Notes: generated by a model from the letters alone, not told the origin. A stretch of DNA of 64,000 nucleotides from Heterodontus francisci (GCF_036365525.1 NC_090413.1:27914262-27978261); one strand, 5' to 3'. Counted from the stretch's first letter, positions 8,816 to 58,625 are shown. Made by a program: numbers and translations.

Positions 8816-8845
8816 TCATTCAAAAGACATCAGGTTCAGAGGAGG
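8816..8845 (-). CDS. RALGPS-like: RalGPS-like last coding exon: PPLNLMSFE*
   Basis: tttttgttgcag acceptor, TGA at 8816-8818; NLMSFE is the RalGPS C-terminus. Confidence 0.88.
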   Translation of the reverse strand, partial: PPLNLMSFE

Positions 8846-9539
8846 CTGCAACAAAAATGAAATCAGTTCAGATCACAAGCCATGTTTCGAGGTGAACACC
8901 AGATCAACAATGGAAAGAAATCAGAGGGGCCGGCGCTAAGGGAGTGGTGCACTGCTGGAGGAGACATTAAACAGAGGCCCCGTCTGCTCTCTCAGGTGGG
9001 TGTAAAAGATTGTTTCGAAGAGCAGGCGAGTTCTCCTGGGGCCAGTATTTATCCCTCAACCAACAATCACAAAACACAAATTACCCAGTGATTTATCACA
9101 CTGCTGTTGCATCTTGTGGTGCATAAATTGGCCTCTGGGTTTCCTATATGACAGTGACTACACTTCAAAGATACTTCATTGGCTGTAAAATACTTTGAGG
9201 TCCTCAGGTTGTGAAAGGCGCTACAAAAATGTAAAATTTTCTTTCTCAGTCACCATCACTCAGTTGAGCAGAGTGGTGAAGAGATCCTGTCACTCAGAGA
9301 GCATCAAGGTCGACAAGACGACAGATAAGGGGAAGATGGGTGGCTTGCAATCCCCATCTCATTATCTCTTCGCCTGTGGGCCACTCCACAGTCCAGGGGC
9401 AGCAGCCTCAAGGGAGAGGAGCTGGAAATACCCCCTGACCACAGAGAACCCAAATACCTGATTAACAAAACAAATTAGTTCAGAGATACATGTATTTGCC
9501 TTCATGATCAGGTAGTCCCTAAGATCAGATAGTGCTTAC

Positions 9540-9631
9540 CTGGTTGCTGTTACTGTTGCAAGCCCTGTTAAGGTGTTTGAACCACTGCACTGCATTCAGT
9601 CTGCTCCCTGCATGAAACCTATAGCAATTCC
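9540..9631 (-). CDS. RALGPS-like: RalGPS-like exon (PH end): NCYRFHAGSRLNAVQWFKHLNRACNSNSNQ
   Basis: 92 nt, phase 1/0; PH C-terminal helix Trp (W.KHL..AC). Confidence 0.91.
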
Positions 9632-10972
9632 CTGCTTTGAAAAGAGAGAGAGACTCAAGGCAAGTTTACAGCATGACAACAAAGCACAATGAGAAAGGAC
9701 AGTGCCCAGAACCTCAAACAATGTGAAACCTCAAATTAAATAACAGGGAGCAAGGCAAAACTAAAGTATATTCCTGCAGAGTTTTAACACTGCACTGTAA
9801 ATGTGACTTGGATTTATGTCTGTGATACTCGACACAACGAGTGCCCAATCTCAGCCTGGTCCCAGAGGTGAAAATGCAAAGTGGCAGGGATGTAGCCACA
9901 GATAACTAGAGGTGGGGGAAGTGGTGGGGAGGGTGGGAATAACCAATGGCAAACATGGAATGGTGGGCAAGTCAACAACCTTCATTTCCTCCCGACAGGT
10001 ACCAGTTGCACTTACACAAAGTAACAGTCATTTCTCCACAGGAGAATAAAATGGAGAAGGAACATATACAGGTTCTGTGGGTAAGTGCACTGGTGAGGGG
10101 TGGAGTGGGGGAGGGAAAGAGGGGCAGAGAGTGAAGAAAATAATTGGACAGGAACATTTACAAAAAGTGCTATAATACGAACAAAAACTGCTGGAAATAC
10201 TCAGCAGGTCTGGCAGAACTGATGAAGGGTCACTGACCTGAAACGTTAACTCTGTTTCTCTCTCCACAGGCACTGCCAGACCTGTTAAGTATTTCCGGCA
10301 TTTTTTGTTTTTATTTGCGATTTCCAGCATCTGCAGTATTTTGCTTTTATTTGCAAAGTGCTAATTGTTCTGTAGCAGTGGAGATGTTCATTAACTTTTA
10401 CTCAGTCCTTGCTCTTTTTCATCAGGAATTCTTCACAATTTACTGAAGCCAATATCAAAGCGAGAGAGAGCGAGGGAGGTGGGGGGGGGGCAGGGAGGGA
10501 GCGAGAGAGGTGGGGGGAGGGAGGGCACAGAGAGAGAGAGTGTCCTGACCCTGGTAAACACAGAAATGTACAGGACTGGAAGAGACCACAAGGGTCCAGC
10601 TGACCACTGCCATTGACTTGGGCCAAAGTCAGTCTTCCCTTGTCCCTGCTCCACTCGAAATCAGCCTTCGACTAGCTTCTAGAGACAGACAGACAGACAG
10701 ACAGACTTGTGCCATTGGATATCCAACATGCTCATGGATAAAGGGCTATTTTGCAGATTGTGTCCAGTTCTCCTCTGGAGGCATTTCACGTGCTTTAACT
10801 AGCACCAAATATAAAAACAAAATTTCTTAACCAGTCCCATCGAGAGAAGTGATCGCTCAATACTTTGCAAACAAAATTCTCTTTATGCCCCCTCAAATGA
10901 CAATGTGGAGCAACCTCATGTTTTTAAAATAGAAAGTGATTCCCAAGAGATAAAAAGCAATGTTGAACTCAC

Positions 10973-11075
10973 TGTGTTCAGAGTCTGAGAGCTGAAACAT
11001 GTCCATATCTGAATCAGTCATCAGCAGAGGCATCCAACCCACAACTGACACTCTCTTACACCAGCTCGACTTAAA
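10973..11075 (-). CDS. RALGPS-like: RalGPS-like exon (PH): FKSSWCKRVSVVGWMPLLMTDSDMDMFQLSDSEH(R)
   Basis: 103 nt, phase 0/1, gtgagt donor; VS.VGWM and D.FQL motifs. Confidence 0.9.
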
Positions 11076-11756
11076 CTGCTCAAAAAATAATTCATAAATT
11101 CAACAATTGGAGAAAAAAAAAAACTGAAGCAGTTTATGATTGTTTACCACAGATTCAGTTAATTGGAAATATAGTGAACTCAGCAGTTTGAATTCTAACC
11201 TCAAATGGCACTGTGTCCCCCTCAAAAGGGTGGATGGACAATATGAGGGGGCAACGGGACTAGTACAATTTCTCTGAATTACTCCCCTTTTGGGCACTGC
11301 AGTCTATTTCCTCTGATTGGGAAATCAAGGGCACAATCTTAAAATTAGAGCTCGGCTGTTCGGGGGGGAAATTAGGAAAAACGTCCACATAAAGGGTAGT
11401 GGGAATCTGGAATTCTCCCTCTCAAAGTTGTGGATTCTGGCGACAGAAACTTTCAAGGCTGTGATAGATTTTGTTGGGTAAGGGCATTCAGAAAAATGAA
11501 GCAAAAGGTGGGTAAAATGGAGTGGAGGTGAATGGTAGAACAGGCCCGAGGGGCTGAAGGGCCTCCTCCTGGTCCACGTACCCTATATGACACTTGAGAG
11601 AAGCCTTGCATAGTAGGCCTTAGGAACCTCACCAGCTCAATAATTCCAATTCAACATCCCAATCCAAATGTCTGCGATTTGTCAGTCTGACAAGATGTAA
11701 TTATTCAGGGAAGGAATGCAAACTCTTCTCATAAACCACAGTCCAACAACACTGAC

Positions 11757-11849
11757 CTGTTTTCTTTCAGTCGATTTCATCGATTTGGCTCCATAGTAAA
11801 CCAGCTGACTATCGCAGAGCGCAATCCAATACGTCGTCCATAGTGACAC
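11757..11849 (-). CDS. RALGPS-like: RalGPS-like exon (PH): VSLWTTYWIALCDSQLVYYGAKSMKSTERKQ
   Basis: 93 nt, phase 0/0; W..YW..L....L.YY.AKS motif. Confidence 0.92.
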
Positions 11850-12599: not shown

Positions 12600-12705
12600 C
12601 CTCGGTTTCTTGCCATCCTTCAGGACCGTTTTCCTCCTCAGTGTGCTTTCAATGGTTGCAGACCCTCGCTGGGAATGGACTCCAGAATTATCAGGTAGTA
12701 TGGGT
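12600..12705 (-). CDS. RALGPS-like: RalGPS-like exon (PH start): PILPDNSGVHSQRGSATIESTLRRKTVLKDGKKPR
   Basis: 106 nt, phase 2/0, gtaagg donor. Confidence 0.92.
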
Positions 12706-13630: not shown

Positions 13631-13699
13631 CTGACTAGGATTGTGCAAGAGCTCCGGGTAAACCTGGTCATAGGACCCAGGGAGCGATAGACCCCATTC
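13631..13699 (-). CDS. RALGPS-like: RalGPS-like exon: NGVYRSLGPMTRFTRSSCTILV(R)
   Basis: 69 nt, symmetric phase 2/2; resembles RALGPS N.LYHSLGPVTR motif (recalled). Confidence 0.8.
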
Positions 13700-14704
13700 C
13701 TGTTGTAGAAACAGGTAAAGCAAATCCTAATTAACACACACTCAGCAGGGGGACACAGGAACAGGAGGAGGCCATTCAGCCCCTCAAGCCTGTTCTGCCA
13801 ATGACATTATGGCTGATTTGCATCCGAACACCATATTGCTCAATACCCTGATCTAGCAATAAACTATTGATCTCAGATTTGAAATTATTAATTGATCTAG
13901 CATCTCCTGCTTTTTGTGGGAGAGAGTTTCACACTTCCGCCACCCTTTGTGTGAAGAAGTGTTTTCTAACTTCTCTCCTAAATGACCTGACTCTGATTTT
14001 AAGGTTAAGTCCCCTTGTCCTATCTCCCCCACTAGCGGAAAATGTTTCTCTCTATCTGCCCCATCAATTCCTTTCAAAATCCAAAAAAACTTCACATCAA
14101 AGCACCCCTTAACCTTTTATATTCTGGGAAATAAGCCTAGTTTATGTAACCTCTCCTCATAATGCTTGGTGGGGAAGGGGGGGTTGGTGTTGAGAGTTCT
14201 ATTTAAAGGCAAATTAACCGTTTGGAGTTTATTGCTTCATATTAACTCAGCTCTCACCGTTCAAAAGTTGACCAGGAGCTTGCATCTCCGACGTCACAGC
14301 TTTCTTCACAGGAGGCTGGAACAGGAAGTGAAAACCCATCACCAGACCGTCTCAAAAATACCATCCTGGATTTCCCTCTGGGATTCTCTGAGCCACATCC
14401 CATGTTTCCCGGTTGACAGAGGTTCTTCAACCACTGCGTGCAGTGAGGGGTCCACAATTGACATTGCAGATGCTCTCTCCTCCCTTTGGGGAATCTTAAG
14501 AAAAGCAGGTGCTGAGTGGACCCAACATCGAGCAGGATCTGCTCCCTCCGTGCAGGAACAATGCAAGCTGACACCACACACTGTGAATCACTAGTTGGAG
14601 CCCAACGCAGTGGCACATTAGGATGTGGAAGAGAAAACCATTGGTCATGTATCACATTAATGCTGCCAAGTGGAAGGATGCAGATTGTTCTCACATGACT
14701 TTAC

Positions 14705-15623: not shown

Positions 15624-15769
15624 CTGGACAGTGGTCACAAGCCGGCTGGACCGTAGCCTGCACCATCCATAACAAATCATCTTGCAGCACAGTGTCATCC
15701 AGGAGACACCGAGATCGAGAGCCAGGGAATGTGGCACTTTTGGGGCCTGCATTGCTCATTCGTCGAGCT
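15624..15769 (-). CDS. RALGPS-like: RalGPS-like linker exon: ARRMSNAGPKSATFPGSRSRCLLDDTVLQDDLLWMVQATVQPACDHCP
   Basis: 146 nt, phase 2/1; conserved KSATFP....R.LLDD.V motif. Confidence 0.87.
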
Positions 15770-18039: not shown

Positions 18040-18145
18040 TTGTAATCAACACTGCGCCATTTTCTGTGTCCCCGTGTCAAACACAGACACGTAACTGTGG
18101 CATCACCGTCAGAATATTCAGCTGCCTCAGTGGGGGAGAGTGAGC
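18040..18145 (-). CDS. RALGPS-like: RalGPS-like linker exon: SLSPTEAAEYSDGDATVTCLCLTRGHRKWRSVDY(K)
   Basis: 106 nt, phase 1/2, pyrimidine-rich acceptor, gtgagt donor; GHRK..S..Y resembles RALGPS2 GHRKCHSLGY (recalled). Confidence 0.8.
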
Positions 18146-19002: not shown

Positions 19003-19067
19003 CTACAGCTGCTCCCCCGGAGATCTGATGCTGAGCACAAGACATGGGTTCAATCATCAGAGACAGT
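19003..19067 (-). CDS. RALGPS-like: RalGPS-like exon: LSLMIEPMSCAQHQISGGAAV(G)
   Basis: 65 nt, phase 2/1; LSL.IEP motif ending the CDC25 domain. Confidence 0.88.
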
Positions 19068-19537: not shown

Positions 19538-19628
19538 CTGTGGTTGTCCTGCTCCAGGAGCCCTTGCAGTTCCTCGATGTATCTCACAGAGTTCAGGTAT
19601 CTCTGCACATGAGGCAATGTCAGAAGAT
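19538..19628 (-). CDS. RALGPS-like: RalGPS-like exon: (D)[29 protein letters not shown](R)
   Basis: 91 nt, phase 1/2; LPHVQ.YL.SV.YIEELQ motif. Confidence 0.93.
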
Positions 19629-21568: not shown

Positions 21569-21706
21569 CATATTCACAGAATTGCTGAAAGTCACAGATA
21601 ATCCGTAAAACATTGTTGATCTGATTACAGCGATGCTTATTCTCCAAGATGCCTGCCGATGGTGGATATGCAGCATCAATGTAGGTGAGGTCAGACAAGT
21701 AGATCC
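21569..21706 (-). CDS. RALGPS-like: RalGPS-like exon (RasGEF): (G)[45 protein letters not shown](D)
   Basis: 138 nt, phase 1/1, completes the PYLG-IYL.DL motif across the large intron. Confidence 0.94.
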
Positions 21707-23094
21707 CTGGAAGAGACAAAACAGCCAGAGTTCAGAGATGCCAAAACGGGGGATTCTTTCTGCAAATCAAACATTTTCACAAAAGGTGAAGGCTGTTCAG
21801 CTCTTGCAGCATCACTAAAGCACATGATCTGGTCATTTATCTCACTTTGTGGGATCTTGCTGTGTGCAAATCGGCTGCCATAATTCTTACTTTACAACAG
21901 TGATTATAATTCAAAAGGACTTCAATGTGAAGTGTTTTGGAACATCCTGAGGTTGTGAAATTGCACTAGAAAAATACAAGTTTGTTCTTTCCTTCCTTTT
22001 AGACAGGCAGTGTCAGGTACAGCACCAGTATTGATGTACGTCACTAAAGCTCCTTCGACCCTGCCTTTTAACTCAGGAAGGCAGCTCCCACTGACTGCTG
22101 CCACGCTTTGATATCCTACCAAAGCCATCACTACTCATTCACATAGACTGTCAGTTAGGGAAAGTTGGATTCACATCTGAATTCGTGAATTTTGGGAGCT
22201 TCCCGAGCAGCGCAAGATTAATTTCCAAACCATCAAAATCTAGCTTGCAAAACTAGATCCTAGAGCTGAAACTAGACTGTGTGAAGTTACACTGGCCAAC
22301 AAAATTCTATTAAAATGAAAGTTGGCAATGTAACAATTTTTAATAGTTCAAAAGGTACAGAATAAAAAAAGTGAATTGCAGACAGCTGGGCTCTCCTGTA
22401 AAACGCAAGGTCAATGTGACAATTTCAACCAATTCATCACCGGAGGTCTCTGTGCTGTTATGTTTATATCGAGAAGATGTTCCTGTGCAATTTTTAAGCA
22501 TTTTCCAGTGTGACTCCGTTTCAAGGAGAAAAATTTCCACGAAGCTGCAAAAGTTCATCTCGGGAGATAGCAACCAAGTAGTGTTCTGTCAAAGGTCATC
22601 CTAGACGTTGGCCAGTGCCATGTGACTTCCTTCCTGACCCTTCCCAACATCTTCCCCCCTCGCCGGCCCCCCAACTTCGAGTCCAAACCATTTGCTCAAA
22701 CACTGAGCAATCCTCCAGTCGGCTGATTGCGGAGTTGGATTCTTTACAGTCTGGGTGAGGTGAGAGGAGGAAGGATGTTGACACATTCACCAGAAATAAA
22801 TCAATCAATTAAGAGGTGCAACCTCCAGCACCTTCCTCACCATCTGTAACTCCTGGAAACTGCCCACACTCCAGACCTGTGCTGGCAAAGAAAGAATTAA
22901 AGAACTTGCATCTCTATAGCGCCTTTCACAACTGCAGGACATCTCAAAGTGCTTTACAGCCAAAGAAGTACTTTTGAAGTGTAGTCAGTGTAGGAAACAT
23001 GGCAGTCAATTTGCGCACAGCAAGCTCCCACAAATATGAAAGCTGGATAATTTGTTTTAGTGATGCTGGAGGAGGGATAGATAGTCAAGTGCTC

Positions 23095-24186
23095 ATGGGA
23101 GTAGGGCAATATAGTGCTATGGATTGAGAATTGGTTGACAGACAGAAAACAGAGTAGGGATAAATGGGTCATTCGCAGGATGGCAGGCTGTTACTAGGGG
23201 GGCACAGCAAGGGTTAGTGCTGGGACCACAGCAGTTCACAATCTATATAAATGATTTGGATATGGGGACCAATTGTAGTAATATTTCCAAATTTGCTAAT
23301 GACAAAACTAGGTGGGAATGTAAGTTGTGAGGAGGATGCAAGGAGGTTTCAAGGGGACTTGAATAGGTTAAGTGAATGAGCAAGAACATGGCAGGTGGAA
23401 TATAATGTGAAGAAGTGTGAAGTGATCCACTTTGATAGAAAAAACAGAAAGACAGAGTATTTCTTAAATGGTGAGAGGTTGGGAAGTGTTGATGTCCAAA
23501 GGGACCTGGGTGTCCTTGTTCATGAGTCACTGAAAGCTAGTATGCAGGTGCAGCAAGCCTTCATCGCAAGGAGATTGGAGTACAGGAGTGAAGATATATT
23601 GCTGCAATTGTAGAAAGCCTTGGTGAGACTGCACCTGGAGAATTGTGTACAGTTTTGGTCTCCTTATCGAAGGAAGGATATACTTGACATAGAAGGAGTG
23701 CAATGGAGGTTCACCAAACTAATCCCTGGGATGGCAGGATTGTCTTAAAAGGAAGGATTGCAGAAACTGGGCCTGTATTCTCTAGAGTTTCGAAGAATGA
23801 GAGGTGATATTGAAACTTACAAAATTCTTACAGGACTTGACAGGGTAGATGTGGACAGGATGTTTCCTCTAGCAAGTGAGTCTAGAACGAGGGGACACTG
23901 TCTGAGAATAAGGGGCAGGCCATTTAAGACTGAGATGAGGAGGAATTTAATTCAGAGGGTGGTGAATCTGTGGAATTCTCTACCCCAGAGGGCTGTGGAA
24001 GCTCAATCATTGAGCATGCTCAAGACAGAAATTGATAGATATCTGGACACTAATGACATCAAGGGATATGGGGATAGTGGGGAAAATGGCGTAGAGATAG
24101 ATGATCAGCCATGATCTGTCTGAATGGTGCAGCAGGTTCGATGGGCTGAATGGCCTACTCCTGCTCCTATTTCCTATGAACCTATG
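23095..24186 (+). mobile_element. Degenerate CR1-clade LINE 3' portion
   Basis: W.MEYNV.KCEVIHF, LYSLEFRRMRGD and RVVNLWNSLP motifs with stops and frameshifts; CCTATGAA-type tail. Confidence 0.88.
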
Positions 24187-43541: not shown

Positions 43542-44188
43542 CATAGAGTCATACAGCACAGAAACAGGCCCTTCGGCCCATCGTGTCTGTGCCAGCCATC
43601 AAGCACCTAACTATTCTAATCCTATTTTCCAGCACTTGGCCCGTAGCCTTGTATGCTATGGCGTTTCAAGTGCTCATCTAAATACTTCTTAAATGTTGAG
43701 GGTTCCTGCCTCTACCACCTCTTCAGGCAGTGTGTTCCAGATTCCAACCTCCCTCTGGGTGAAAAATCTTTTCCTCAAATCCCCTCTAAACCTCCTGCCC
43801 CTTACCTTAAATCTCTGCCCCCTGGTTATTGACCCCTCTACCAAGGGAAAAAGTTTCTTCCTATCTAACCTATCAATGCCCCTCATAATTTTGTATACTT
43901 CAATCATGTCCCCCCTCAGCCTTCTCTGCTCTAAGGAAAACAACCCTAGCCTTTTCAGTCCCTCTTCATAGCTGAAATGCTCCAGCCCAGGCAACATCCT
44001 GGTGAATCTCCTCTGCACCCAGAGTTATACAGCACAGAAACAGGCCCTTCGGCCCATTGCGTCTGTGCCGGTCATACAGCACCCAACTATTCTAATCCCA
44101 TATTCCTGCACTTGGCCCGTAGCCTTCTATGCTATGGCGTTTCAAGTGCTCATCTAAATACTTAAATGTTGTGAGGGTTCCTGCCTAC
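43542..44188 (-). mobile_element. Two abutting truncated CR1 3' ends
   Basis: RRFTRMLPG..LGLFSLEQRRLRGD ORF; the ~165-bp 3' end is repeated at about 43545 and 44021. Confidence 0.85.
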
Positions 44189-45966
44189 ATTTCAAACACA
44201 GGAGATGAAGAGATCACAAGTTAGAAGTTGAGGAGAGTGAAAAGACTCACTTATGTAAAAACCATGTGGTGGGTGGAGAGTGTGCGGGAGGAGGGGAGTT
44301 TGGATCGATAGTTCCCAAAGCTCTCCCCCACTGGGGGTTTTCCTCATCTCCATGTCTGTGTCTCTTGTAGACTCGGATAGTGAACGATTGTTGTGATTGG
44401 TCAAGATATTGTTGGATGATCTGATGGCCAGGATGGTAGAAGATAAACTAAATAGACCCGGGTCTTGTTTCATCGAGCAATTCCTGCGTTTGAATACTAG
44501 TGCATAGAGAGGAGGAAAATATCCTTCAAAGTAATCCTGATTTCTCAGTCAGCTGTCACACTGCCAAAAACAAACAAGCAGTCATTGTGGCAGACACACT
44601 CATGCTGCCTCTGGATATTCATGACCCAATTCTTCCTGCTCCCAATTAAACCTCATCATTTCTCCCTCTTCCCCTGCTCCATGGAGGAGTCTTAAAGACA
44701 TACATCAATTGTCCCATGTAATCTGTAAGCCCCAATCTTGCAGGGTCCATTTCAATCAGATTTACCGAATTTTAAAATGTTGCTCCTCCAAGTCTGGATT
44801 ATGACATCGTAGCAGCATTCATCCCATTGAGCCGAGACTGCCAGAAAAATGAAGGGCAGCCGCATAGCAGGGTCCTCGAGGGCACTCAGTACCAGCGAGG
44901 AGGAAAGGGGGAAACCTGGGGCTTCATCCCTTACTCACCGACATAAAACAAAACCGTCCCTGAACAAATTAGTGATTAACAGGAGGTGAAGTCCTAACAA
45001 ATGTCTGAAGATCAAAGTGTTTAAATGTGTTGTAAAGTATCTTAAAGGACAAGGGAGAAACAAAAGATAAAACCAGGTCATTACTGTTCTGTGGCGATGG
45101 GAACATTCTGAACTTTGGTTAATTGCCACTCATTTCTCAGATAACAAAGCAAGCTACTGGCGACAGCTATTAGACTCATTTTCTGTGATCATAGACCACA
45201 GCCATCACAGAAAAGGACTGAAAATAACATGGAACCATACAATACAGCTGTTCCCACAGCTCTAACAATGTAGTGACCACTGACCTCAAAACTACACGTA
45301 AACCGCAATTCCTTTGTACCAGCTCACAACGTACGGTCATCAACTGAGCAGAGACTCAGGCCCCACTCTACACAGAAACACAGCCCATGTTAGCACTGCG
45401 TCAGTGGGTTGGTGCGGCTCAGTGTTTTGGCCTGGCCTGGGTCACATTAGCTCAGCTGCCGACACTGCCAACTCAGATTCACATCCAGCAAGATACTGAC
45501 GGAGTGCAGCATTGCCACAAGTGCTGTCGTCCGATGAAAGATTAATTTCCACTTCAACAGGCAGGCAAAGATCGGTGACACGGTTTGAAGAACAGCATCT
45601 TCTGGTCAATATTCTTCCCCCAACCACCAAAAACCGAATAACTGCTGATCCATCTCATTGCTGTTCCCGAGATTATGCTGGGCACAAAATGGTTACATCT
45701 GCCCACAAAACACTCACCCCACTTCCAGCCAATCCATTGCAGCTGAAGTTCTTTGGAGATGTTTCAGACACAAGATGTTGTTCAATAGATGGAAGTTTTT
45801 GTTCTTTGTCAAATCCAGTTCTCATCTCTTGCTCCCTCTGTGAGCACAGTTTTTCCATAGGGTGGGGGCACAGTAATTGCTTTGCTCCCAAGAACGAACA
45901 TGGTGTTAAAGAAAAGGTTGTGAGTGATGAAACCCATCAGGCGTTACAGTGTGATTTCTTGACCAG

Positions 45967-46157
45967 GTCCCTGGAAAGATTGTCTCCATGTTTTGGAAGA
46001 TGGTCATGGATCCAATGGAATCTACTTGGTCAAACCAAAAACCGTCAACCGACTGATGCAGGTGTGGTGTGAACAGCAAGATCCCGGCGGCTGGACAGTC
46101 ATCCAGAGGCGGCAAGATGGCTCGGTCAATTTTTTTAGGACTTGGGAAAATTACAAG
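45967..46157 (+). CDS. ANGPTL6: ANGPTL6-like coding exon 3 (fibrinogen domain): GPWKDC...QVWCEQQDPGGWTVIQRRQDGSVNFFRTWENYK
   Basis: 191 nt, phase 1/0; canonical GGWTVIQRR.DGSV.F FReD motif. Confidence 0.94.
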
Positions 46158-47021
46158 GTTAGTTAAGTCGGAGCCGATTGCCAGAGTCTGTTCTCATGTC
46201 CCTCTCCAGATAGTGGGTTTTGCCATCAGTTGCCGAGCTGTGTGTCTGACTCAGTTACCCTCGAAATAATTAATAAGGAAACTAGTATTTGAGAAAAGAA
46301 GTGCCTTTCACATGACGGAAAATGTTGTAAAGTAAAAAGGAGGGGGGTTTGTGTGGAGCAGGAAGTAGGGCAGATTTGGGTTGCTTGACCCAAGTAGTGT
46401 CCTAGTGACAGGGTTTGAAGGTGCAGGAAAGTATTTGCCTGGTGACTGGGTCTAAGGAGCAAACTGGGAGGACAGTGGCAAGATGAGAGAGAGGCCAATC
46501 GTCAATGATGGTGGAGAAAGAGGGTAGCAGTATAGGCAAGGGGAGAGGAGTTAGCCCACAGAGCCATGTAAAAACGAGGATGAAGATGATAAACTACTAG
46601 TGGAGGCAACACCAATGAAGGTCACTGAGAGTAGCACTGACTGTAGCAGTGACAGTGGTGCAGGATAGGATAACGACAGCAATAACTCCTGAACTAAGTA
46701 AAGCTTTGGACGTGGAGCATTGTAGGAAACAAGCTTTGAGGTGAGGAAGTGGACACGCGTTTCGGTGGTGGAAGAAAACATGTTTGATAATGAGCCAAGT
46801 GCAGATTAGAACCAGGCTTTTTAAAAAGACCCAAAACTAAGAGTTTCAACTTGAAACACCAGAACAACTTCATGTAAAGGAGCTAAACTGGACAAGTAAT
46901 GAGAGGAACTACAGTATCAAGCTTAAAATACTTGCCTTTCAAAGCACCTAAAGCCTCTTTCCAATGATATGGTGCACAAAAGGGCAAGTAATCAATAAAT
47001 AGTCTTTGTTTTCATTTGCAG

Positions 47022-47292
47022 CAAGGCTTTGGGAACATAGATGGCGAATACTGGCTGGGTTTAGAGAACATCTACTGGCTGACCAACCAAGACAACTACA
47101 AGTTGCTCATCCTCATGGACGACTGGCAGGGGAGGAGAGTGTTTGCAGAGTATGACAACTTTCGCGTGGAAGCAGAGGCAGACTTCTACAGGCTCAGATT
47201 AGGCCACTACCGCGGGAATGCTGGAGACTCCTTATCCTGGCATAACGGCAAACAATTCACCACACTGGACAGAGATCGGGACCTGTATATAG
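47022..47292 (+). CDS. ANGPTL6: ANGPTL6-like coding exon 4: QGFGNIDGEYWLGLENIYWLT...AGDSLSWHNGKQFTTLDRDRDLYI(G)
   Basis: 271 nt, phase 0/1; GFG...GEYWLGLE motif. Confidence 0.95.
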
Positions 47293-47754
47293 GTAGCGTA
47301 TTCCACGGAGTTATAGTACATTTTCAAGAAAGGTTAACAAAAATACACTGAACAGAGACGAGGAGAAAGTACTGGGAAATGTACAGGCCAGTCAGTATGA
47401 AATGGACAAGTGAATGGGGCCCATGAATGGATGCATAATTGGATGTCTTTAAGAGAATGTGTCTGCTCTGTACATTTCACTTGTTATTTCAGTTTTCCAG
47501 CATTTTTATTTTTCCCCCTTCCATTTCGAACACTAGGAAGCTAGGATAATATTTTAGGGAGATTACCAATGATTTAAGAGTTCCCAACTGTGATCGTAAT
47601 CAACTGTAATGTTACTGGAGTGTACAGAAATGAGGGGGGATAGGTTAGATAAGGTAGTGTGTGTATTGCTTTTAAGTGCAGCTGTCACTTTGACCCATTT
47701 AAAAACATCTGCCTTTCCAAGAAGACAATAAACCAAGGCCTCATCTGCCATTTT

Positions 47755-48445
47755 AAGGTGGGCAGAAAAGATCCCATGGCACTATTTAAAAGAAACAAAG
47801 TGATTCCTGACAACGCAGCCAGCCACTGACATCATCAGGCTACTCCAGGGTGCGCACATGAGCAGACCGGCTCCTGCTCCCTGCACGTGCGCTGTGTTCC
47901 AACTTGCCAGGACCGGTTAGCGCATGTGTCGATGACATCATCGCATGACGTATGCATCTTCGGGCAGCACGCCTGGTCGGCCTCTGCGCATACGCTTTAC
48001 GCGTACAGCAATGCAACGCCAACGGGTATTCACCCATGCGTCAAGCTCCGCTACCCACCCCCCCACCCTCACTGCTCTCTCCGGCTGCTCCGCTCTTTCC
48101 ACCGCTTCGCTCCCCCTCTCGCTGTTCTCTGCGGCCGCTCTGCTCCCCCCCCCCCGCCCCCGCCCCGCTGCTCTCTCCGGCCGCTCCGTTCCTCCCCTCT
48201 TAAAGAAAAGCAGGGGAGTCCTGCCTGTGTCCTGACCAATATTTATCCCTCAACCAACATTGCTAAAAAAAATAGAAGGATCTGGTCATTGATCTTATTG
48301 CTGCTTGTGGGAGCTTGCTGTGCACAAATTGGCTGTCGCTTTTCCTTTATTACAACAATGACTACACTTTGAAAAGTATTTTGCTGGCTGTAAAGTGCTT
48401 TGGGCCATCCTGAGGTCGTGACAGGTGCTATGGAAATGTACGTCT
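47755..48445 (+). mobile_element. Deu-domain SINE split by a ~400-bp CpG-rich insertion
   Basis: AAAGATCCCATGGCACTATTT at about 47768 resumes as GCAGGGGAGT...GACCAATATTTATCCCTC at about 48210. Confidence 0.7.
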
Positions 48446-50050
48446 TTTTTTTTCTTGGTCCTGTCCACAAAGGAAGTTTAACTCAGGAGTTTGATCGTCT
48501 CTCCTTGGGAAACCAGAGGTGGTTCTGGTTCTGGTGGAGAAATGATTGCCTGCATTGTTCAAGCACATGGTTCTCCATTACTCACTGAAGGAGTGAGAAT
48601 ATTGGCAGCTGTTAGAGCTGAAGGCAAAAGGACAATCTCCCCACAGGTAAATGGGTAGGAATGAGAAGCGGGTCAGCACGAAATATCACAGCTTCTCATA
48701 GCATAGTGGGAGGTTTTATAGACTAACGATCGAGTGGGAGAGATAAAAGGGATGACCCATTCTCCTGCCCAATTTATCAGTTTTTGTTAAGATTGTAGTG
48801 CTTTATAAAATCGCTGACTCGACGCCTTGACTTCTTTAGATGCAGCTGTGCCTTGGAGGCCGAGAGGGTTTTTTTTTTTATTTGTTTGTGGACATTGCTG
48901 TCTAAGCTAGCATTTATTGCCCAACCCCGAGTTGCCTAACTGAGTGGCTTGCTCGGCCATGTCAGAGGGCATTTAAGAGTCAACCCCATTGCTGTGGGTC
49001 TGGAGTCATATGTAGGCCAGACCAGGTAAGGACGGCAGATTTCCTTCTCTAAAGGGCTTGAGTGAACCAGATGGGTTTTTACAACAATCAACAATGGTTT
49101 CATGGTCACCATTAGACTAGCTTTAAATTCTAGATTAATTGGATTCAAATTTTACCATCTGCCTGGGCTTCAGATTACTATCCAGTGACATTAACACTAC
49201 ACCACTGCCTCCCCAAACTGGGGGGGGGAGCTCTTCAGCTGCAGCTGGTAGACCAGTTGGGCAACAGAATGAACGAGAGGCAGGGCATCATGGAGAGCGA
49301 TAACACTCAACTTAAAAATCAATGCACAGGGCCAAAACTTGTTTTTTAAAATTACATTTCAAGACGTAGAGGCAATCATAAATCTGAAGTTTATTCTAGG
49401 ATTAAAAATAGTCAACGCAGTCATAACTTTTGGAACAAAGTTCGAAATTGAAAATAAAAAACACATTTTGTTTCCAAGCCCCAGTTTATCCTGACATTTC
49501 AGGAGCTGTGAGATAAGTGAAACAATTCACTTTTTCACATTTTAAGAGCAATTCCTGACCAGATTAGCAAAGCAAACCTCCCAAACTAAAACTTGCAAAT
49601 CAAAGACTATACCAAGAAGAAAAAAACAGGAAGCTTCTGCTTATCCAACACATTCCCTGAGTGGAGGACACCCCAGGCCACTTTGCAGCCAAATGAATTA
49701 CCTTTTGTAGAACAGTTACTGATGTAATGCAAAGAACAAGAGGCCATTTCACCTATCAGGCCTGTTCTGTTATTCAATTCGATCAGGGCTGATTTGTATC
49801 TCAACTCCATTTCCCTTGATGCCTTTACAGTCCCAAAAATCTATGACCCCCAGCATCCACAGCCTTTTGGGGAGGGAGGGGGAAAGATATCAGATTTCCA
49901 CTAGCCTTTGTGTGGATAAGTGCTTCCTGATTTCATTCCTAAATGGCTGAGATTTGAGATTACCTCGGGTGAATTACAGAGTGTGAATCTGGACACCTTT
50001 TCATGTACGTCATAGCCTTGCTCATTGGCGTCCGTGTGCTTCTTTTCAAG

Positions 50051-50235
50051 GTAACTGCGCCCACTATCAGAAAGGAGGTTGGTGGTACTACACCTGTGCA
50101 CACTCAAACCTGAATGGAGTGTGGTATAAGGGCGGGCACTATCGCAGCAAGTACCAAGATGGCGTTTACTGGGCTGAATTCCGTGGTGGTGCCTACTCTT
50201 TGAAAAGAGTAGTGATGATGATACATCCAAACTAG
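50051..50235 (+). CDS. ANGPTL6: ANGPTL6-like last coding exon: (G)NCAHYQKGGWWYYTCAHSNLNGVWYKGGHYRSKYQDGVYWAEFRGGAYSLKRVVMMIHPN*
   Basis: cttttcaag acceptor, TAG at 50233-50235; GGWWY..C..SNLNG motif. Confidence 0.95.
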
Positions 50236-52322
50236 ACACTGCTGTAATATATTCACTCAGCTTTACAAAATGGGATTACAATAACATTTGCCTGCATGTT
50301 ATTGTCAGACACCTCTGTATACTTTTTAAATATTGTGTTATACAATGACCGTTTTATAAGCGAAGTTACAGACAACAGAACTACCTACTTAGAGTATAAT
50401 ATGTCTTGCTGAGGCTAAAGTAGATCCAAAGCAACATGGGAATGTCTATCCTGCTCTATGACACATGAATGCTCCAGGAATGTAGCGGGGGAAGGAGCAA
50501 GCTCACAGAAAATCACACGATCACTTTCTGGCCTCTCCAGTGTCCTGCAGCTTTCCCCTTCCCATGTGAACACACTCAAAAAAATATATGGGCAAACAAC
50601 AAACCACTAGATTAGAGCTCATTAATTATTAAAACAGTTATGTCCCAGACACTTAAATTAGTTGTAGTGTCTTTTTAGTGAAATGTACATCTTAGAAAGG
50701 TCAGGAAACTAGAACCTAAAACTATGCTGATTCACCCTGGTTAATGCTTCCCAGCCTTGGCTCTTTATGCTAATTGTAAGGTTGCTACAGGTAGGAGAGT
50801 TTGACAGTCTTAACGCAGGTTAAAGTGAGCATGGTGCCCAGAACACAAAACAGCCCTGATTGGATACGGAGTTGGGTCACAAAGGTGCAAGTGACACATG
50901 GATGAGCATCCTGAGAGGTTTGGGGGTTGTAGGGAGGGGAGGGATGGTCAGGAGTCAATGTATATTGTTGGGATAGAGTACGAGGGGATTTACCCTGCAG
51001 CCAGACTTGCTACACCTGACTTGGAGTGTTTGATGTAGCGACTTGGTGCCAGAAACAGGAACGTGTTCACTTGCTCAGCGTCAACATCCCTCACCTGAAT
51101 TTACAAAAAAAAAAATCCACCGGAAAAAAAAAACAAAATACATTTAGAGCTAATATACAGGACTGACTTCAAACCTGTAAACTCATTTTGGGGTTTTCAC
51201 TGATCACTAGGAGGAGTGGCCAGAGATCCATTAGGAAGACAGGAACAGGAAGGAGGCCATTCAGCCCCTCGAGCTTGTCCCACCATTCAGTAACATCCTG
51301 GCTGATCTGTCTCTCAGCTCCATTCCCCCTCCTTTGATTCCATTCCCCTGAATACTCTTACCAACAAAACTCAGTTCTGATGAAAAGTCACTGACCTGAA
51401 ACGTTAACTCGGCTTCTCTCTCCATAGAGAGCATTTGTTTTAATTTCAGATTTTCAGCAGCCTCAGTCTTTTGCTTTTGCAAAACTTTATCAATCTTAGT
51501 TTTGAAGTTTTCAGTTGACCCCAATCTCAACAGCTTTTTGGGGGAAAGAGGTCCAGATTTCCACTATCCTTTGTGTGAAGAAGTGCTTCCTGACATCACC
51601 CCTGAACAGCCTGGCTCTAACTTTAAGGTTCTATCTCCTCATGACTTGCTCCCTCACCAGAGGAAATGGCTTCTCCCTCTCCCCTATCAAAAGCCTTTGA
51701 TCGTATTAAACACCTTGATTAAATCATCTCTTAATCTTCTATGCATAAAGAAATACTAGCCGAGTATATACAACCGGTCTTCAGTTTAACCCTTTTAGCC
51801 CCAGTAATGTTCTGGTGAATCACTAATCTCTGTACTCAGAGTCCTAGTGACCACCATCTGCAAGTTTACTATCCACAGGTTCAGCCACGTAATCGACTGT
51901 TATCTTCTGTTTGAGCCAGGACGCACTAAGGGATGCAACAGCTGGCCCTGAAACCCTTGTAGCTCCAGAACAGGCCACCAGGAGGTGATCAAGAGCAGCC
52001 AGCTCCCAGTGGACTGGTCTCCAATCTTCAGCTCTCCCCACGGGTAGTGGCAATGATTTCCACTAAGTGAAATGTACCACAGGGCATCTATATACCAGAT
52101 AACATTAAAGCAGCACTCTGCATGGAAGCTAATCATTAGGATGCACAGTCAATGACTCTAGTTTATATAATCTGCTAGATCTTTTAAAGATGGAGACTTC
52201 TCCCGGCTATTTACTAGAAACCTGACATTTAATAGAGATTCTCAGCCTAAATATTAATCTGTCAATTGTTTATGTTTTGTTCACACTTCCGAGCTCTATA
52301 AAAAAAAAACACTAAAAATTTG

Positions 52323-52328
52323 AATAAA
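52323..52328 (+). terminator. Candidate polyadenylation signal of the ANGPTL6-like gene
   Basis: AATAAA about 2.1 kb after the stop, in AT-rich context; unverified. Confidence 0.35.
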
Positions 52329-52744
52329 AGACTTTGTGCTGTAATATGCTCCAGATTTTTGGCGTAGATCAGGGAGTTAAACACTGGACAATGTGGGTGT
52401 GAAACTTGCAGTCGTGTGTTGGCCACACACCTGAGTAACTGCCTCAATACCATAGACCAAGATGGTTAAAAGTGCTGACCGTGTCCACTTGGAGCAGAGG
52501 GAAAGACGCATTGTCTAGTTACTGCTCAGGCATTCTCTCACTCATTGCTGGAGTGACTGAGATGGGTTTTCCAATAACTTCAGACTCTTTAGATCAGAAG
52601 CAGACAATAGGAAATAAATAGCAGAAAAAGGGTTGGGGGTGGGGGTGGGGTGGAATGTAAATACACAGGAACAGGTTGCCATGGTTACAGCTTCACATCC
52701 AATAGTGACCGTTGGCCAAATTCCTTTCGACAGTTCTCCCAGCT

Positions 52745-54670
52745 TACGAACATACAAATTAGAAGTAGGCCATTCGGCCCCTCAAGCCTGCTCTGTCATT
52801 CAATAAGATCATGGCTGATCTGTTTGTGTCTCAAATTCCACACTCCCATCTACCCCCGATAACCTTTGATTCCCTTACCTAACAAGAATCTATCTACCTC
52901 CGCCTTACAAATATTCAATGCCCCCACCTCGACCACCTTCTGAGGCAGAGAGTTCCAAAGTCGCACAACCCTCAGAGGAAAAATGTCTCCATCTCTGTCC
53001 TAAAAGGGCCACCCCTAATTTTAAAACAGTGCCCCCTAATTCTGGACTCCCCCACAAAAGGAAACATCCTTTCTACATCCTCCTTGTCAAGACCATTCAG
53101 AATCTTATAAACTTCAATCAAGTCTCCCCTCACTCTTCTAAACTTCAGGTGAAAACAAATCCAATCTGTCCAACTTTTCCTCATAAGACAACCCGCTCAT
53201 TCCAGGTATCAATCTAGTAAACCTCCTCTGAACTGCCTCCAACGCATTTACATCCTTCCTTAAATAAGGAGACCAAAACTGCACACAGTATTCGAGATGT
53301 GGTCTCACCAATGCCCTGTATAATTGAAGCATAACATCCTTACTTTTATTTTCAATTCCTCTCGTAATAAAAGATAGAATTCCATTAGCCTTCTTTATTA
53401 CTTGCTGTACCTGCATACTAACTTTTTGCAACTCCTGCACTAGAACACCTCGATCCCTCTGCACCTCAGAATTCTGCAGTTGTTCCCTGTTTAAGTAATA
53501 CTCTGCTTTTTTATTCTTCCTGCCAAAGTGAACAACTTCACATTTTCCCACATTATACTTCATCTGCCAGATTTTTGCCCACTCACTCAACCTATCTATA
53601 TTAGTCTGCAACTTCCTTATACCCTCGTCACAACATACTTTCCTACCTTTCTTTGTCTCATCTGCAGATTTAGCTACCATACCATTGCTCCCCTCACCTA
53701 GCTCATTGATACAAATTGTAATAAGTTGAGGCCCCAGCACAGACCCCTGGGGGACTCCACTCGTCACATCCTGCCAATCAGAAAAGGACCCATTTATGCA
53801 TACTCTAATCATAGAGAGATACAGCACAGAAACAGGCCCTTTGGCCCACTGAGTCTATGCTGACATTCAACCACCCATTTATATTAATCCTACATTAATC
53901 CCATATCCCCTACCACATCCCCACCTTCCCTCAATTCTCCTACCACTTACTTACACTGGGAGCAATTTACAATGGCCAATTTACCTATCAACCTGCAAGT
54001 CTTTGGCTGTGGGAGGAAACCGGAGCACCCGAAGGAAACCCACGCAGACACAGGGAGAACTTGCAAACTCCACACCGGCAGTACCCAGAATTGAACCCGG
54101 GTCGCTGGAGCTGAGAGGCTGCGGTGCTAACCACTGCGCCGCCCCATTCTGTTTTCTGTCAGCCAGCCAATCTCCTACCCATGCTAATATGTTACCCCCT
54201 ACACCATGATCTCCTACTTTGCGCAGTAACCTTTTATGTGGCACCTTGTCAAATGCCTTTTGGAAATCCAAATTCAGTACATCAACGGGCTCCCCTTTAT
54301 CCAGAGCACGTGTCACTCCTTCAAAGAACTGCAAGAAATTGATTAAACAGGATTTCCCTTTCACAAAACCATGCTGACTATTCCCAATTACCTCGAGTTT
54401 TTCTAAGTGCCCAGCTACAACCTCTTTTATGATCGCTTCGAACACCTTCCCCATGACAGACGTCAAGCTAACTGGCCTATAGATACCGGTTTTCTTCCTC
54501 CCCCCCCACTTCTTGAATAGAGGGGTTATATTTACTACTTTCCAGTCTGCTGGAATCTTACCAGAATCAAAAACTTTTGAAAAATTAACACCAACGCATC
54601 TACCAGCTCATTAGCCACCACTTTTAAAACCCTAGGATGAAGTCCATCAGGACCCGGGGACTTGTCAGCT
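52745..54670 (-). mobile_element. CR1-clade LINE fragment interrupted by a tRNA-derived SINE
   Basis: SQHGFVKGKSCL, LDFQKAFDKVPH and GVPQGSVLGP motifs; the element resumes either side of 53808-54145. Confidence 0.9.
53808..54145 (-). mobile_element. tRNA-derived V-SINE (HE1-like) nested in CR1
   Basis: Minus strand begins GGGCGGCGCAGTGGTTAGC (A box) ... GGGTTCAATTC (B box), then the V-domain GTGGAGTTTGCAAGTTCTCCC...GCGTGGGTTTCC and a CR1-like 3' tail. Confidence 0.82.
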
Positions 54671-55834
54671 AATTGTTAAATGATGCATCTCCAGCCGAGA
54701 GGTGTCAATCCTCCTTCAAACAGGGTGCTGCTGATTCTCAAGTTTTATTTCAAGCGCGGGTTCCTGTTTGATTGTTCACCGATTTCTCCCACAATCGATT
54801 GAATCAGGGTCTGGAATATTCAACTTTACCAATTCAAGGTAATGTGACTTGAAGTGAAGGTGAAAACATATTGCTTATGAAAGGCGACATACATACAGCG
54901 GGAGAAATGGCTAGACATCTTGTTCCTGTCATTTCTCCATGATTTAAAATAAATCAAACCATGTGGCCAATATTACATAGTGGAAACAATAAACTAACGC
55001 CTAGGGTTGTAGATTTAACTAAAAATTATAAAAGGAACCTCCTGCTTAGAGTTTCAAAGCTGGTCACTTCTGTAATTCATTAAGGATTTTACGACATCAG
55101 TAACATTACACAACACATTTGTGTAATGAACGTTTAGATAGAGTACATTCCCAGACTAGAACAATTAACCAGCATTCGATCATTCTGAACTCTCAATCCT
55201 GTGTTAGCTACAAGGTTTGAGGTTCAGAATCCACAATACACTTACTGTAATGACATTTACCCCACACATCTCCCCTCGAGAAAACCCACCAAGTTTACTA
55301 ACAGATCAACACAGCTATGCATTACGAGAGAAAGCCACAGCTTGATAAAAAGGACACCTTCTACTTTTGAGTGTTAATACAGGGAAGTTATTTAACAAGT
55401 TTGATCATTCACACGCCCTCTCTCCTCAAGAAGGTAGCAATATTAACATTTCCAACATGCCATGTGTAAACCCAACCAGGCAGGAATAACACTCCCACCA
55501 CTCATGGTGAGAGAAGAGAGTTCTCAGCCCATGGGTTAACTTCACACATCACTTTGTAGCTGGTTTCACCATCACTGGTGAAGATCCAGTTCCCAAGTCA
55601 GGTGTCTGCTCTGGGCTCTGGACTGACCTGATGAACCTTTTGCTGCCTCATTGATGCAAGGAGGAAAATGATCAATAGGAGGCAAACTAAACTTGGGAGT
55701 CTCCATCAAGCAAAGACCGCTCAGTCCCTTTGGTCATGGCCTCTCAGCCAGTGGAAGTGTATACAGCAACACTGAAATGTGAGAAGATCTAACAGTTGGT
55801 GAACATTCAGCCTCTCGAAAGAGATTGGACTCAC

Positions 55835-55961
55835 CTAAATATGGAATGCATGGTGTCATTTTCAAGCAGCCAATGTATTCTCTGAGCTGCTTGTAGTTAT
55901 CTTCCTTGGACATCAACATCTCCAGCTTTTCAAAGACAGCCTTATCCTTCCTGCTCAACAG
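55835..55961 (-). CDS. RALGPS-like: RalGPS-like exon (RasGEF): [42 protein letters not shown](G)
   Basis: 127 nt, phase 0/1, gtgagt donor opening the 34-kb intron that hosts the ANGPTL gene. Confidence 0.95.
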
Positions 55962-56800: not shown

Positions 56801-57517
56801 TATATCAATCCCAACCCAATACCACTGCTCCACACTCTCCCCATGGCCCTCTGTCAATCCCACTGTCCCATTCTCTAATCCCACCGCACTGCAGCTTTTC
56901 CGACTGAGCATGTGAAAAAGCTGGGAGAGGCGGCAAGTTGAATAACTAGGAAACCTGTCCTTTCAGAAGGCAGCTTTGTACAGGTTACAGGCACCTGCAA
57001 TGTGCTGGTTTTGCTGAAGTTCATGAAAATGCACAAAAAAAATGCAGATAAAAAAGAAAAAACTTCAAAAAGCACAGAACAGTCTGGGAAAAACCCATAA
57101 ATTTCCAAAACATTACATTTGCAGCCTTGGAGATTCTGAAGACACAAATATAATGTTCAGTAGAGAGAACTCGCCAACTGAATTATGTAACTGATTATGG
57201 ATCCTTACTGTTCAAAGCAAGATTACCCAATTAACAAAACTCTGTTTTACCACTTCCATCTCGAATTACAGTTTTCAGTTCATTTTCACCGGCAACACAA
57301 ACAAACATTCAAAATCTCACCATGTTCCCCCCACTTGTCCAAATCTAATTTCGAAAAAGACTTTATCCATAAACTGCCCAGTCCTGCTCGATTTGCATTG
57401 ATAGGAGACTGAACAGGTCAGTCACCAGCTCTCTCAGCCTAGAACAATGTGCAATAAAGGAGGTCCCTTAGAAACAAACAATAATAAAAAGCCGTTTAAA
57501 AAGGGTTCTTCACTTAC

Positions 57518-57610
57518 TGTCCATGTTCTTGACAACCTGAATACTGGTGTGCTCTGTAAAGCTGAAATCACCGCCATCAACCCATGGAGATTATGGAGAT
57601 CCTGAAGTTT
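57518..57610 (-). CDS. RALGPS-like: RalGPS-like exon (RasGEF): [31 protein letters not shown]
   Basis: 93 nt, ttgcag acceptor, gtaagt donor; CDC25 motif N...LMAV.SAL.S.P.FRL..TW. Confidence 0.94.
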
Positions 57611-57903
57611 CTGCAACAGAAACAGATTTGTTTTTATACAAATGCTTTTTGTGCTGTCACGGCAGATACACTCAGTGAAACAACTGCCTGCAGAATGCTA
57701 TTTTTACTGATTATTTTATGCATGTTGTTATCAACAGCTTTCTGAAATTAAACAGGTGGAAAGCACCAGCATCTGCAACAATCTCTCAACATCACACCTG
57801 TGAGGCAAGACATTCAAGTCCCACCACATGGAGCCAATTGTCCAAGTTGCTCATCAAACCTGCATCTAATACTCAGCCACTCTCAGGATAAACAGAGACT
57901 TAC

Positions 57904-57993
57904 CTTCGCTATTTTGATAAAGTGGCCGAGAACTTCGACTCTTATTTTAAGAGTCCGTTTGGTGAGAATCTCGTGGATGACCCAGAAACTGAC
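57904..57993 (-). CDS. RALGPS-like: RalGPS-like exon (RasGEF): [30 protein letters not shown]
   Basis: 90 nt, tttgcag acceptor, gtaagt donor. Confidence 0.93.
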
Positions 57994-58541
57994 CTGCAAA
58001 AAGAGAAGCACTCATTTATTTTGTGTTAATCCTTCATCTCTTAATCACACTCCCAAGTCCTTTGCTTGAGTAAATAGGTGTACAATAGTTACTGCCAAGA
58101 ATGTTAGAAGTATTTACATTTTTTTCATTGAATTGATTGGATTAAAATTTCTAAACTTTAGAACTCGCCCTCTCCCACAGCTCCCATCGACAGGTAACTG
58201 AACACAAGGGTTTATTTTCTCCTTTCCCCACCCCCCCCCCACAAAAGCTGGATTAATTTCACCAATTAAAATATCGAGAGGCTGATCGAGTAGGACCCAG
58301 AACCGAAATTCCAATAGGATGACAGAATTGGAATTGGACCAAGGGAGCAGACGGTTTAAGTAGTGACAGTAAAACATGGGACAAGTCGTATTTCTTGGAC
58401 AGTGAATAGTGAGCAGTGAGGATGGACGATCAGGACTCGATGCTGCAGTGGGAGATGGTGGAAATTAAATGGATCAAATGGGTTTGTACATTTCAAATTT
58501 CTCTGGTTAATTACCAGACCATGTTGGTTTCTATCTCCTAC

Positions 58542-58625
58542 CTGGTTAAATCTCCCAGTAAAAGCTACCACATTGGGAGCCAAGGTATGTTTCTCTCTTT
58601 TGTTCCAAACACAACTGGATAATTC
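58542..58625 (-). CDS. RALGPS-like: RalGPS-like exon (RasGEF): [28 protein letters not shown]
   Basis: 84 nt, cag acceptor, gtagg donor, phase 0/0. Confidence 0.92.

Follow-up and report, generated by a model that had tools for sequence, protein, structure and literature searches.

The stretch of DNA analysed here, a window of 64,000 nucleotides from the genome of the horn shark Heterodontus francisci (GCF_036365525.1, NC_090413.1:27914262-27978261; positions are counted from its first letter), contains a third RALGPS gene, whose reading frame is intact and one of whose introns holds an ANGPTL6 gene in antisense orientation. We denote this gene RALGPS3. An earlier note on this DNA had reported the arrangement and read it as the copy, kept in this lineage, of an ancestral RALGPS/ANGPTL pair belonging to the paralogon of human chromosome 19; the observation is confirmed by our analysis, which also supports the reading. 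We consider it very probable that RALGPS3 is a third family member, likely produced by whole-genome duplication as the sister of RALGPS2 from an ancestral nested pair, and that it encodes a predicted Ras-independent guanine nucleotide exchange factor (GEF) for Ral without an SH3-binding motif.

RALGPS3 lies on the minus strand, where 16 coding exons between positions 58625 and 8816, all with AG acceptors and GT donors, were defined by a motif scan that located anchor peptides, an outline made by tBLASTn with shark and ray proteins, and inspection of the splice sites. Spliced together, they give 1491 nucleotides (nt) encoding 496 amino acids and a terminal TGA, with no internal stop. The 16-exon frame claimed in the earlier note stands in its coordinates, splice sites and length, but the gene is incomplete in the window: three further coding exons lie upstream, at window-equivalent positions 72566-72513, 68911-68807 and 66685-66635, which brings the total to 19 coding exons and a protein of about 566 amino acids. 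The first of these has an apparent GC donor, inferred from alignment to the orthologue P0002, which may explain why the public model P0001 (the NCBI 'RalGPS2-like' record of H. francisci) starts at an internal methionine. The exons equal P0001 essentially letter for letter, and with P0001 as query the CDC25 part matches human RalGPS1 with an expect value (E) of 4.8e-115, excluding chance similarity.

The part of the gene within the window, which leaves exons 1-3 outside, opens in the CDC25 domain with coding exon 4 (58542..58625, 84 nt, the same size at two paralogous loci described below), followed by exon 5 (57904..57993, 90 nt), exon 6 (57518..57610, 93 nt) and exon 7 (55835..55961, 127 nt), which terminates at PCIPYL|G. 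The host intron of ANGPTL6 (21707..55834, 34,128 nt, phase 1) separates this peptide from the IYLSDL of exon 8 (21569..21706, 138 nt, [10 protein letters not shown]). Exon 9 (19538..19628) has 91 nt as in RALGPS2, against 94 nt in RALGPS1, and the CDC25 domain ends in exon 10 (19003..19067, 65 nt). Then come exon 11 (18040..18145, 106 nt), which reads ...TVTCLCL before GHRK in place of the PxxP of RALGPS1 and RALGPS2; exon 12 (15624..15769, 146 nt, SATFP...LLDD), skipped in P0001 and present in the contig X3 record 19 discussed below; exon 13 (14258..14315, 58 nt); and exon 14 (13631..13699), an in-frame cassette of 69 nt. The PH domain starts in exon 15 (12600..12705, 106 nt), which also carries an RPILP motif, and continues through exons 16 (11757..11849, 93 nt), 17 (10973..11075, 103 nt) and 18 (9540..9631, 92 nt), the last coding exon (8816..8845) ending in PPLNLMSFE and the stop. 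Contig cover reaches about 6680, which suggests a 3' untranslated region of some 2 kb (6680..8815, about 2.1 kb with an approximate end; AATAAA/ATTAAA signals at 6948, 6933 and 6651).

Exactly three RALGPS loci were found genome-wide, on contigs C43 (the window), C8 and C32, using as queries a CDC25 exon, the PH exon and the whole RALGPS2 protein; the whole-protein search used a stricter first pass and gives a lower bound, and its other matches were distant RasGEFs. The ANGPTL coiled-coil exon also has exactly three matches in the genome, and the last ANGPTL exon has three strong ones (100, 87 and 82%), the other 13 of its 16 matches being at or below 49%. C8 carries RALGPS2 with ANGPTL1 (99% identity to Heptranchias RalGPS2 in both domains) and C32 carries RALGPS1 with ANGPTL2 (42 of 44 residues of an exon identical to human RalGPS1), so that both of these pairs exist at loci separate from the third pair in the window. 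At all three loci alike, the ANGPTL gene lies antisense in the intron following the 127-nt PCIPYL exon. The core exon sizes are also common to the three (84/90/93/127/138/91 are common to RALGPS2 and the window), which points to duplication at the DNA level. In human, ANGPTL2 lies within RALGPS1 and ANGPTL1 within RALGPS2, as the earlier note had said and as PMC6371847 states.

The whole-protein search also brought up two groups of weaker matches elsewhere. At C1:222.8-243.1 Mb there is a cluster of repeated RasGEF-like matches, an expanded RasGEF family; their open frames are long, their identity to RALGPS2 is 25-33%, and four of them have equal scores. About nine near-identical weak matches to RALGPS2 residues 126-166 (43-49%, several with TAG) at C8:117.4-124.2 Mb are probably a repeat or chance.

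The nested gene is complete, as the earlier note had it: five coding exons on the plus strand, at 34141-50235, encode 494 amino acids with a single terminal stop. Exon 1 (34141..34782) holds a signal-peptide-like start and the coiled coil in 214 amino acids; exon 2 (42810..43002, 193 nt), a linker exon, is the best-scoring in-frame candidate and has an alternative acceptor 3 nt upstream. The fibrinogen-like domain starts in exon 3 (45967..46157), and continues in exon 4 (47022..47292, 271 nt; Fibrinogen_C, PF00147, E 5e-27); the last coding exon (50051..50235) carries the stop. An 18-row ANGPTL tree with amphioxus as root groups the window gene with ANGPTL6 of mammals, a turtle and a sturgeon and with one further fragment (support 98/97), the C8 copy with ANGPTL1 (94/95) and the C32 copy with ANGPTL2 (84/99); the vertebrate clade itself is supported at 100/100 against the amphioxus and tunicate outgroups. 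Placing the window gene with ANGPTL2 (p 0.009) or with ANGPTL1 (p 0.034) is rejected. It also has an intron directly after the coiled coil that is absent from its C8 and C32 paralogues. ANGPTL6-type fragments diverge at that same point, as inferred from read-through ends, running into intron-like sequence where ANGPTL1/2 fragments run on, so that the extra linker intron fits an ANGPTL6 identity. By its clade, its coiled coil and fibrinogen-like domain and its place next to PPAN, the nested gene is ANGPTL6, as had been proposed, and not an orthologue of ANGPTL1 or ANGPTL2.

The same contig has a second fibrinogen-like exon at C43:24.1 Mb (L014). We rejected it as a rival candidate for ANGPTL6, since it is 42% identical and no coiled-coil exon was found beside it; we take its gene to be MFAP4-like. 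It lies between two tandem copies of SHFL at C43:24087434-24146538. In sturgeon, the gene model of record P0223 joins parts of ANGPTL6 with Ig domains and a membrane segment, presumably of an ICAM-like gene; this weakly suggests that ANGPTL6 in sturgeon lies close to another gene on the same strand and may lack a host.

We next turn to the relationships of the host itself. In a tree of 29 rows, the window protein and eight shark and ray database proteins form a clade of their own with full support (100/100), batoids apart from sharks, and this clade lies outside both RALGPS1 and RALGPS2, as the earlier note required of a third paralogue. The RALGPS2 sequences, from bony vertebrates, elasmobranchs and chimaera alike, form another clade (99/96), within which the C8 copy nests. 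The inner split sets RALGPS2 and RALGPS3 against RALGPS1 and lamprey (99/96). A domains-only tree of 22 rows (the 29 minus two incomplete RALGPS3 records and five redundant RALGPS2 records) gives the same splits with 97/90. Approximately unbiased (AU) tests reject grouping RALGPS3 with chondrichthyan RALGPS2 (p 0.017), with RALGPS1 (0.016) or with lamprey (0.017). A residue after CxYD that is present at C32, in human RalGPS1 and in lamprey is absent in RALGPS2 and RALGPS3, and the difference is visible in the exon lengths (94 nt at C32 against 91 nt); this indel supports the grouping of RALGPS2 with RALGPS3 independently of any model. The window gene thus neither groups with RALGPS1 nor hosts ANGPTL2, and it neither nests within RALGPS2 nor hosts ANGPTL1. 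One argument of the earlier note fails here: the residues it took as a mixture of RALGPS1 and RALGPS2 do not discriminate: chimaera RALGPS2 and the lamprey protein both have LAPNVVAF, and shark RALGPS2 has NLMSFE. Two public records, P0096 and P0143, are named RalGPS1 and align as RALGPS2; they were kept out of the trees.

The trees also date the duplication before the split of sharks and bony vertebrates, given that the RALGPS2 proteins of bony vertebrates, chimaera and sharks group together to the exclusion of RALGPS3. The nested gene tells the same, as an ANGPTL6 common to mammals and the shark makes the block older than that split.

The surroundings of RALGPS3 correspond to those of human ANGPTL6. 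The stop of RALGPS3 at 8816 lies 3,821 nt from the PPAN start codon at 4995, in agreement with the 3.8 kb given earlier. PPAN is on the minus strand, head-to-head with ANGPTL6; its first coding exon (MGRPAR) is at 4978..4995 and its second, at 1186..1356, matches human PPAN (PDB 8fkp, E 1.8e-11), a short exon that the PDB search recognised and Pfam did not. Beyond PPAN follow a P2Y-type receptor encoded by a single exon (by its position P2RY11), EIF3G and DNMT1 exons, which is the gene order of human 19p13.2. The available part of PMC13700139 lists SHFL, ANGPTL6, PPAN, P2RY11, EIF3G and DNMT1 for that region and no RALGPS, which fits the earlier statement that human ANGPTL6 stands beside PPAN without a RALGPS host. 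SHFL is on C43 as well, 3.8 Mb from the window ANGPTL6. EIF3G at C43:27857742-27859470 is on the minus strand like PPAN; in human we take it to be on the strand opposite PPAN, which would mean a local inversion.

Copies of neighbouring gene families recur on the contigs of the other two pairs. All three of the multi-copy neighbour families searched genome-wide (dynamin, ST6GALNAC-type sialyltransferase and adenylate kinase, a small hand-chosen set and not a genome-wide count) have copies on C8, C32 and C43; for dynamin these are two-exon matches to the GED. Upstream of RALGPS3 lie the sialyltransferase, a two-domain adenylate kinase and a FUBP-type gene. The sialyltransferase has paralogues on C8 (74% and 56%) and C32 (58% and 59%), the highest value at C8 fitting a sister relationship of C8 and C43. 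Its GT29 exon is at L017:5077-5511 (C43:27993371, plus strand), about 6.5 kb past the RALGPS3 start codon, and possibly belongs to a further unnamed ST6GALNAC ohnologue. Two adenylate-kinase N-terminal exons are found at C43:28013913 and 28061571 (plus strand; L024 and L025), with two hits at a C32 locus and one on C8; the two-domain gene is presumably AK5-like, and these loci are possibly extra AK5-type paralogues. C-terminal exons of the FUBP family lie at L027:5334-5564 on the minus strand, in a gene that by position we take to be KHSRP. Within the window, long purine-rich tandem repeats occupy 1400-4950 (PPAN intron 1) and 35250-38780 (ANGPTL6 intron 1), and fragments of the LINE (long interspersed element) type occur elsewhere.

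Assuming the whole-genome origin, the nesting of ANGPTL in RALGPS would be older than the genome duplications, and C8 and C43 would be sisters of the second round. Mammals, and probably all bony vertebrates, would then have deleted the host around ANGPTL6, leaving ANGPTL6 head-to-head with PPAN.

RalGPS proteins are Ral GEFs with a PH domain and an SH3-binding motif, from which the family takes its name, and their PxxP binds the SH3 adaptors Grb2 and Nck. The PH and SH3-binding parts are called conserved in the family in the accessible portion of PMC13732082. By descent RALGPS3 belongs to this family, having a CDC25 domain without REM or RA, a C-terminal PH domain and the common exon structure with a nested ANGPTL. 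In Pfam, the orthologue P0002 shows RasGEF and PH (PF00169) only, without REM or RA, and P0001 shows RasGEF; the best PDB match of the CDC25 domain is 3QXL, and the PH domain of P0002 matches 2DTC (E 2e-42). Among columns invariant in RALGPS1, RALGPS2 and lamprey, the window protein keeps 108 of 132 in the CDC25 domain, 36 of 44 in the PH domain and 15 of 27 in the linker. From the conserved columns and the lack of REM and RA, RALGPS3 is predicted to be, probably, a Ras-independent, PH-targeted Ral exchange factor, whose CDC25 domain would likely release GDP from Ral and whose C-terminal PH domain may well position it at membranes.

The functional definition of RalGPS, which includes a linker PxxP that precedes HRK and binds SH3 domains, does not apply to RALGPS3. 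Within 40 residues before HRK, a PxxP is found in none of nine RALGPS3 rows and in all 19 RALGPS1/2 rows; lamprey RALGPS has an offset PTAP in this region. RALGPS3 would accordingly not be expected to be recruited by SH3 adaptors at that site. A different PxxP stands further down the linker, RPILP in the window; of 11 other RALGPS3 records examined for it, 7 have one as well. Judged by sequence identity, RALGPS3 also evolves far faster than RALGPS2: between the window and Heptranchias, RALGPS3 is 87% identical in the CDC25 domain, 61% in the linker and 76% in the PH domain, against 99, 95 and 99% for RALGPS2. The loss of the PxxP in all nine aligned orthologues and this much faster evolution, as read from the alignments, are new here. 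The PxxP loss and the truncation of the public model go beyond the first reading of this DNA.

The transcript data consist of contigs from four sequencing runs presumed to be RNA (of five candidates, with shares of 0.02-0.06, none registered as RNA), in which splicing was read from the coordinates of contig pieces over a stretch that excludes the host-intron junction 55835/21706. Contig X3-19, from organism B (a close relative, 2-3% different), has exon 12 at record positions 196-341, and its last exon starts at 794. Between the two, 452 nt equal exons 13, 15, 16, 17 and 18, from which lengths we infer that the in-frame exon 14 is skipped. In contig X1-3 (organism A, no other letters), the 92 nt before the last exon are the length of exon 18. 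The contigs fit spliced mRNA from probable RNA runs.

Several observations weigh against our interpretation. On the side of the transcripts, P0001 skips exon 12, which shifts the frame to a stop after NLL at 292 amino acids and leaves no PH domain; inclusion of exon 12 is seen only in the contig of organism B; and the orthologue records P0011, P0281 and P0054 are truncated or miss an exon. On the side of the trees, the RALGPS tree is unrooted owing to the lack of an invertebrate RALGPS outgroup, it has a single RALGPS1 row, the branches of RALGPS3 are long, and the AU tests give modest p-values. Finally, the best match of the adenylate kinase is on C32 (65%) and not on C8 (45%), contrary to a sister relationship of C8 and C43, though exons may have been missed.

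The transcript observations lead to the rival that survives best, namely that RALGPS3 is an ohnologue in decay, under relaxed selection, with mostly truncated transcripts, and kept mainly for the enclosed ANGPTL6 and regulatory DNA. The low identities to Heptranchias, the lost PxxP, the frameshifted product P0001 and the shortness of several orthologue records would all fit it, and a truncated isoform may be real in H. francisci. However, sharks as well as rays have records of 538-596 amino acids that contain the two domains, and conservation falls from CDC25 to PH to linker; these two points argue for purifying selection, and the splice path of contig X3-19 includes exon 12 and keeps the frame. 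Relaxed constraint is the main rival to purifying selection, and we consider it rather unlikely.

We find it improbable that the pair arose instead by an old small-scale duplication before the shark/bony split. Trees alone cannot separate such an event from whole-genome duplication, the neighbour families are few and hand-chosen, and the adenylate-kinase match pattern is unclean; yet dynamin, ST6GALNAC-type, adenylate-kinase and RALGPS/ANGPTL copies are spread over megabases on C8, C32 and C43. More improbable still is a segmental duplication of RALGPS2 and ANGPTL1 within cartilaginous fishes, with a long branch pulling the copy out of RALGPS2. It would account for a fast-evolving gene that is closest to RALGPS2 and found in elasmobranchs only, but it is already largely refuted by the rejection of RALGPS3 with chondrichthyan RALGPS2, by the paralogous neighbours on all three contigs and by the nested gene, which groups with mammalian, turtle and sturgeon ANGPTL6 and not with ANGPTL1, implying an older block. 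A misassembly or rearrangement that placed a RALGPS1/2 copy beside PPAN can be practically dismissed: long simple repeats do occur in the window (at about 1.4-4.9 kb and 35-39 kb), but the genuine RALGPS1 and RALGPS2 have loci of their own elsewhere, the exons follow one another co-linearly with matching phases, the gene order equals that of human 19p13.2, and orthologues exist in 13 elasmobranch genera.

The labels of RALGPS3 records from these 13 genera switch inconsistently between RalGPS1-like and RalGPS2-like; the horn shark entry itself is 'RalGPS2-like', just as the earlier note expected of automated annotation. Among 169 stored RALGPS records, 24 are nearest to the window protein: 23 with elasmobranch names and one single-exon fragment tied with RALGPS2 (77 against 76%). 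No chimaera or bony-vertebrate orthologue appears among the 120 of 2062 matches listed, in searches that were weak. A linker-only search gave six relatives among 832 candidates, five RALGPS3 and one RALGPS2 and no bony vertebrate, while missing the known P0049, P0048 and P0011; searches of sequence atlases gave RalGPS clusters or noise only. The proposed loss in mammals is supported for human and is probably too narrow in scope, as these weak searches showed no orthologue in any bony vertebrate. The accessible part of PMC4858283 counts six human RalGEF genes, two of them RalGPS, and together with the gene list of PMC13700139 this supports loss in humans. Loss in all bony vertebrates would extend this further. 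A broader proposal, that RALGPS3 is an elasmobranch-only, diverged Ral GEF without the SH3 motif, deleted by all bony vertebrates soon after their split from sharks, with human SHFL-ANGPTL6-PPAN as the scar and possibly more unnamed ohnologues in the C43 block, we regard as evenly poised between true and false. In open-access text we found neither the name RALGPS3 nor the gene, nor any match in 12 of the 24 supplementary files of the whale-shark paper PMC8455134; subscription papers and gene-tree databases may already contain the clade. In the available portion of Costa et al. 2017 (PMC5237311), angptl6 is not found in elephant shark or little skate, and RALGPS is unmentioned.

If our interpretation is true, ANGPTL1, ANGPTL2 and ANGPTL6, a medically studied trio, all descend from one gene that was already nested in RALGPS, and mammalian ANGPTL6 is free-standing only because its host was lost. 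This would be a clear case of un-nesting, allowing a test of how a host affects the regulation and rate of change of a nested gene. A natural RALGPS without the PxxP likewise offers a test of the motif's role. For annotation, the inconsistent labels in 13 genera and the truncated public model at this locus call for correction. Sharks are already known to retain ohnologues that were lost elsewhere, and our results show no new mechanism.

RALGPS3 shares with RALGPS2, the ANGPTL1 host, the CDC25 and PH architecture, the exon sizes, the antisense ANGPTL in the same intron and the indel state. Compared with the C8 copy of RALGPS2, the window protein is 71% identical in the CDC25 domain, 61% in the PH domain and only 29% in the linker; it differs in forming a separate clade, in its far faster evolution, in lacking the conserved PxxP, in hosting ANGPTL6 and in adjoining PPAN. 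Architecture and nesting are the same in RALGPS1, the ANGPTL2 host (PDB 3QXL for CDC25, 2DTC for PH), whose C32 copy is 69% identical in the CDC25 domain and 55% in the PH domain; RALGPS3 has neither the PPVP motif of RALGPS1 nor its additional residue following CxYD, and a clade of the two is rejected. Shark ANGPTL6 resembles that of bony vertebrates in its position in the tree, the extra linker intron and the PPAN-P2RY11-EIF3G-DNMT1 neighbourhood; it differs in its short branch and in having its highest identity to ANGPTL2 (64%). Human ANGPTL6 (19p13.2) lies between SHFL and PPAN with no RALGPS in the list for the region, whereas the shark copy sits inside its host.

A parallel is given by DOCK7/ANGPTL3 and DOCK6/ANGPTL8, where, in the available text of PMC6371847, ANGPTL genes likewise lie antisense in introns of paralogous GEF hosts; there the host family is another one and both hosts survive in mammals. 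RALGPS3 is a real and apparently unnamed paralogue. It falls into a familiar class, the ohnologues that cartilaginous fishes kept and other lineages lost, and like them it survives in sharks and rays under a misleading '-like' label from automatic annotation. While that class is known, here the lost gene was the host of a surviving one.

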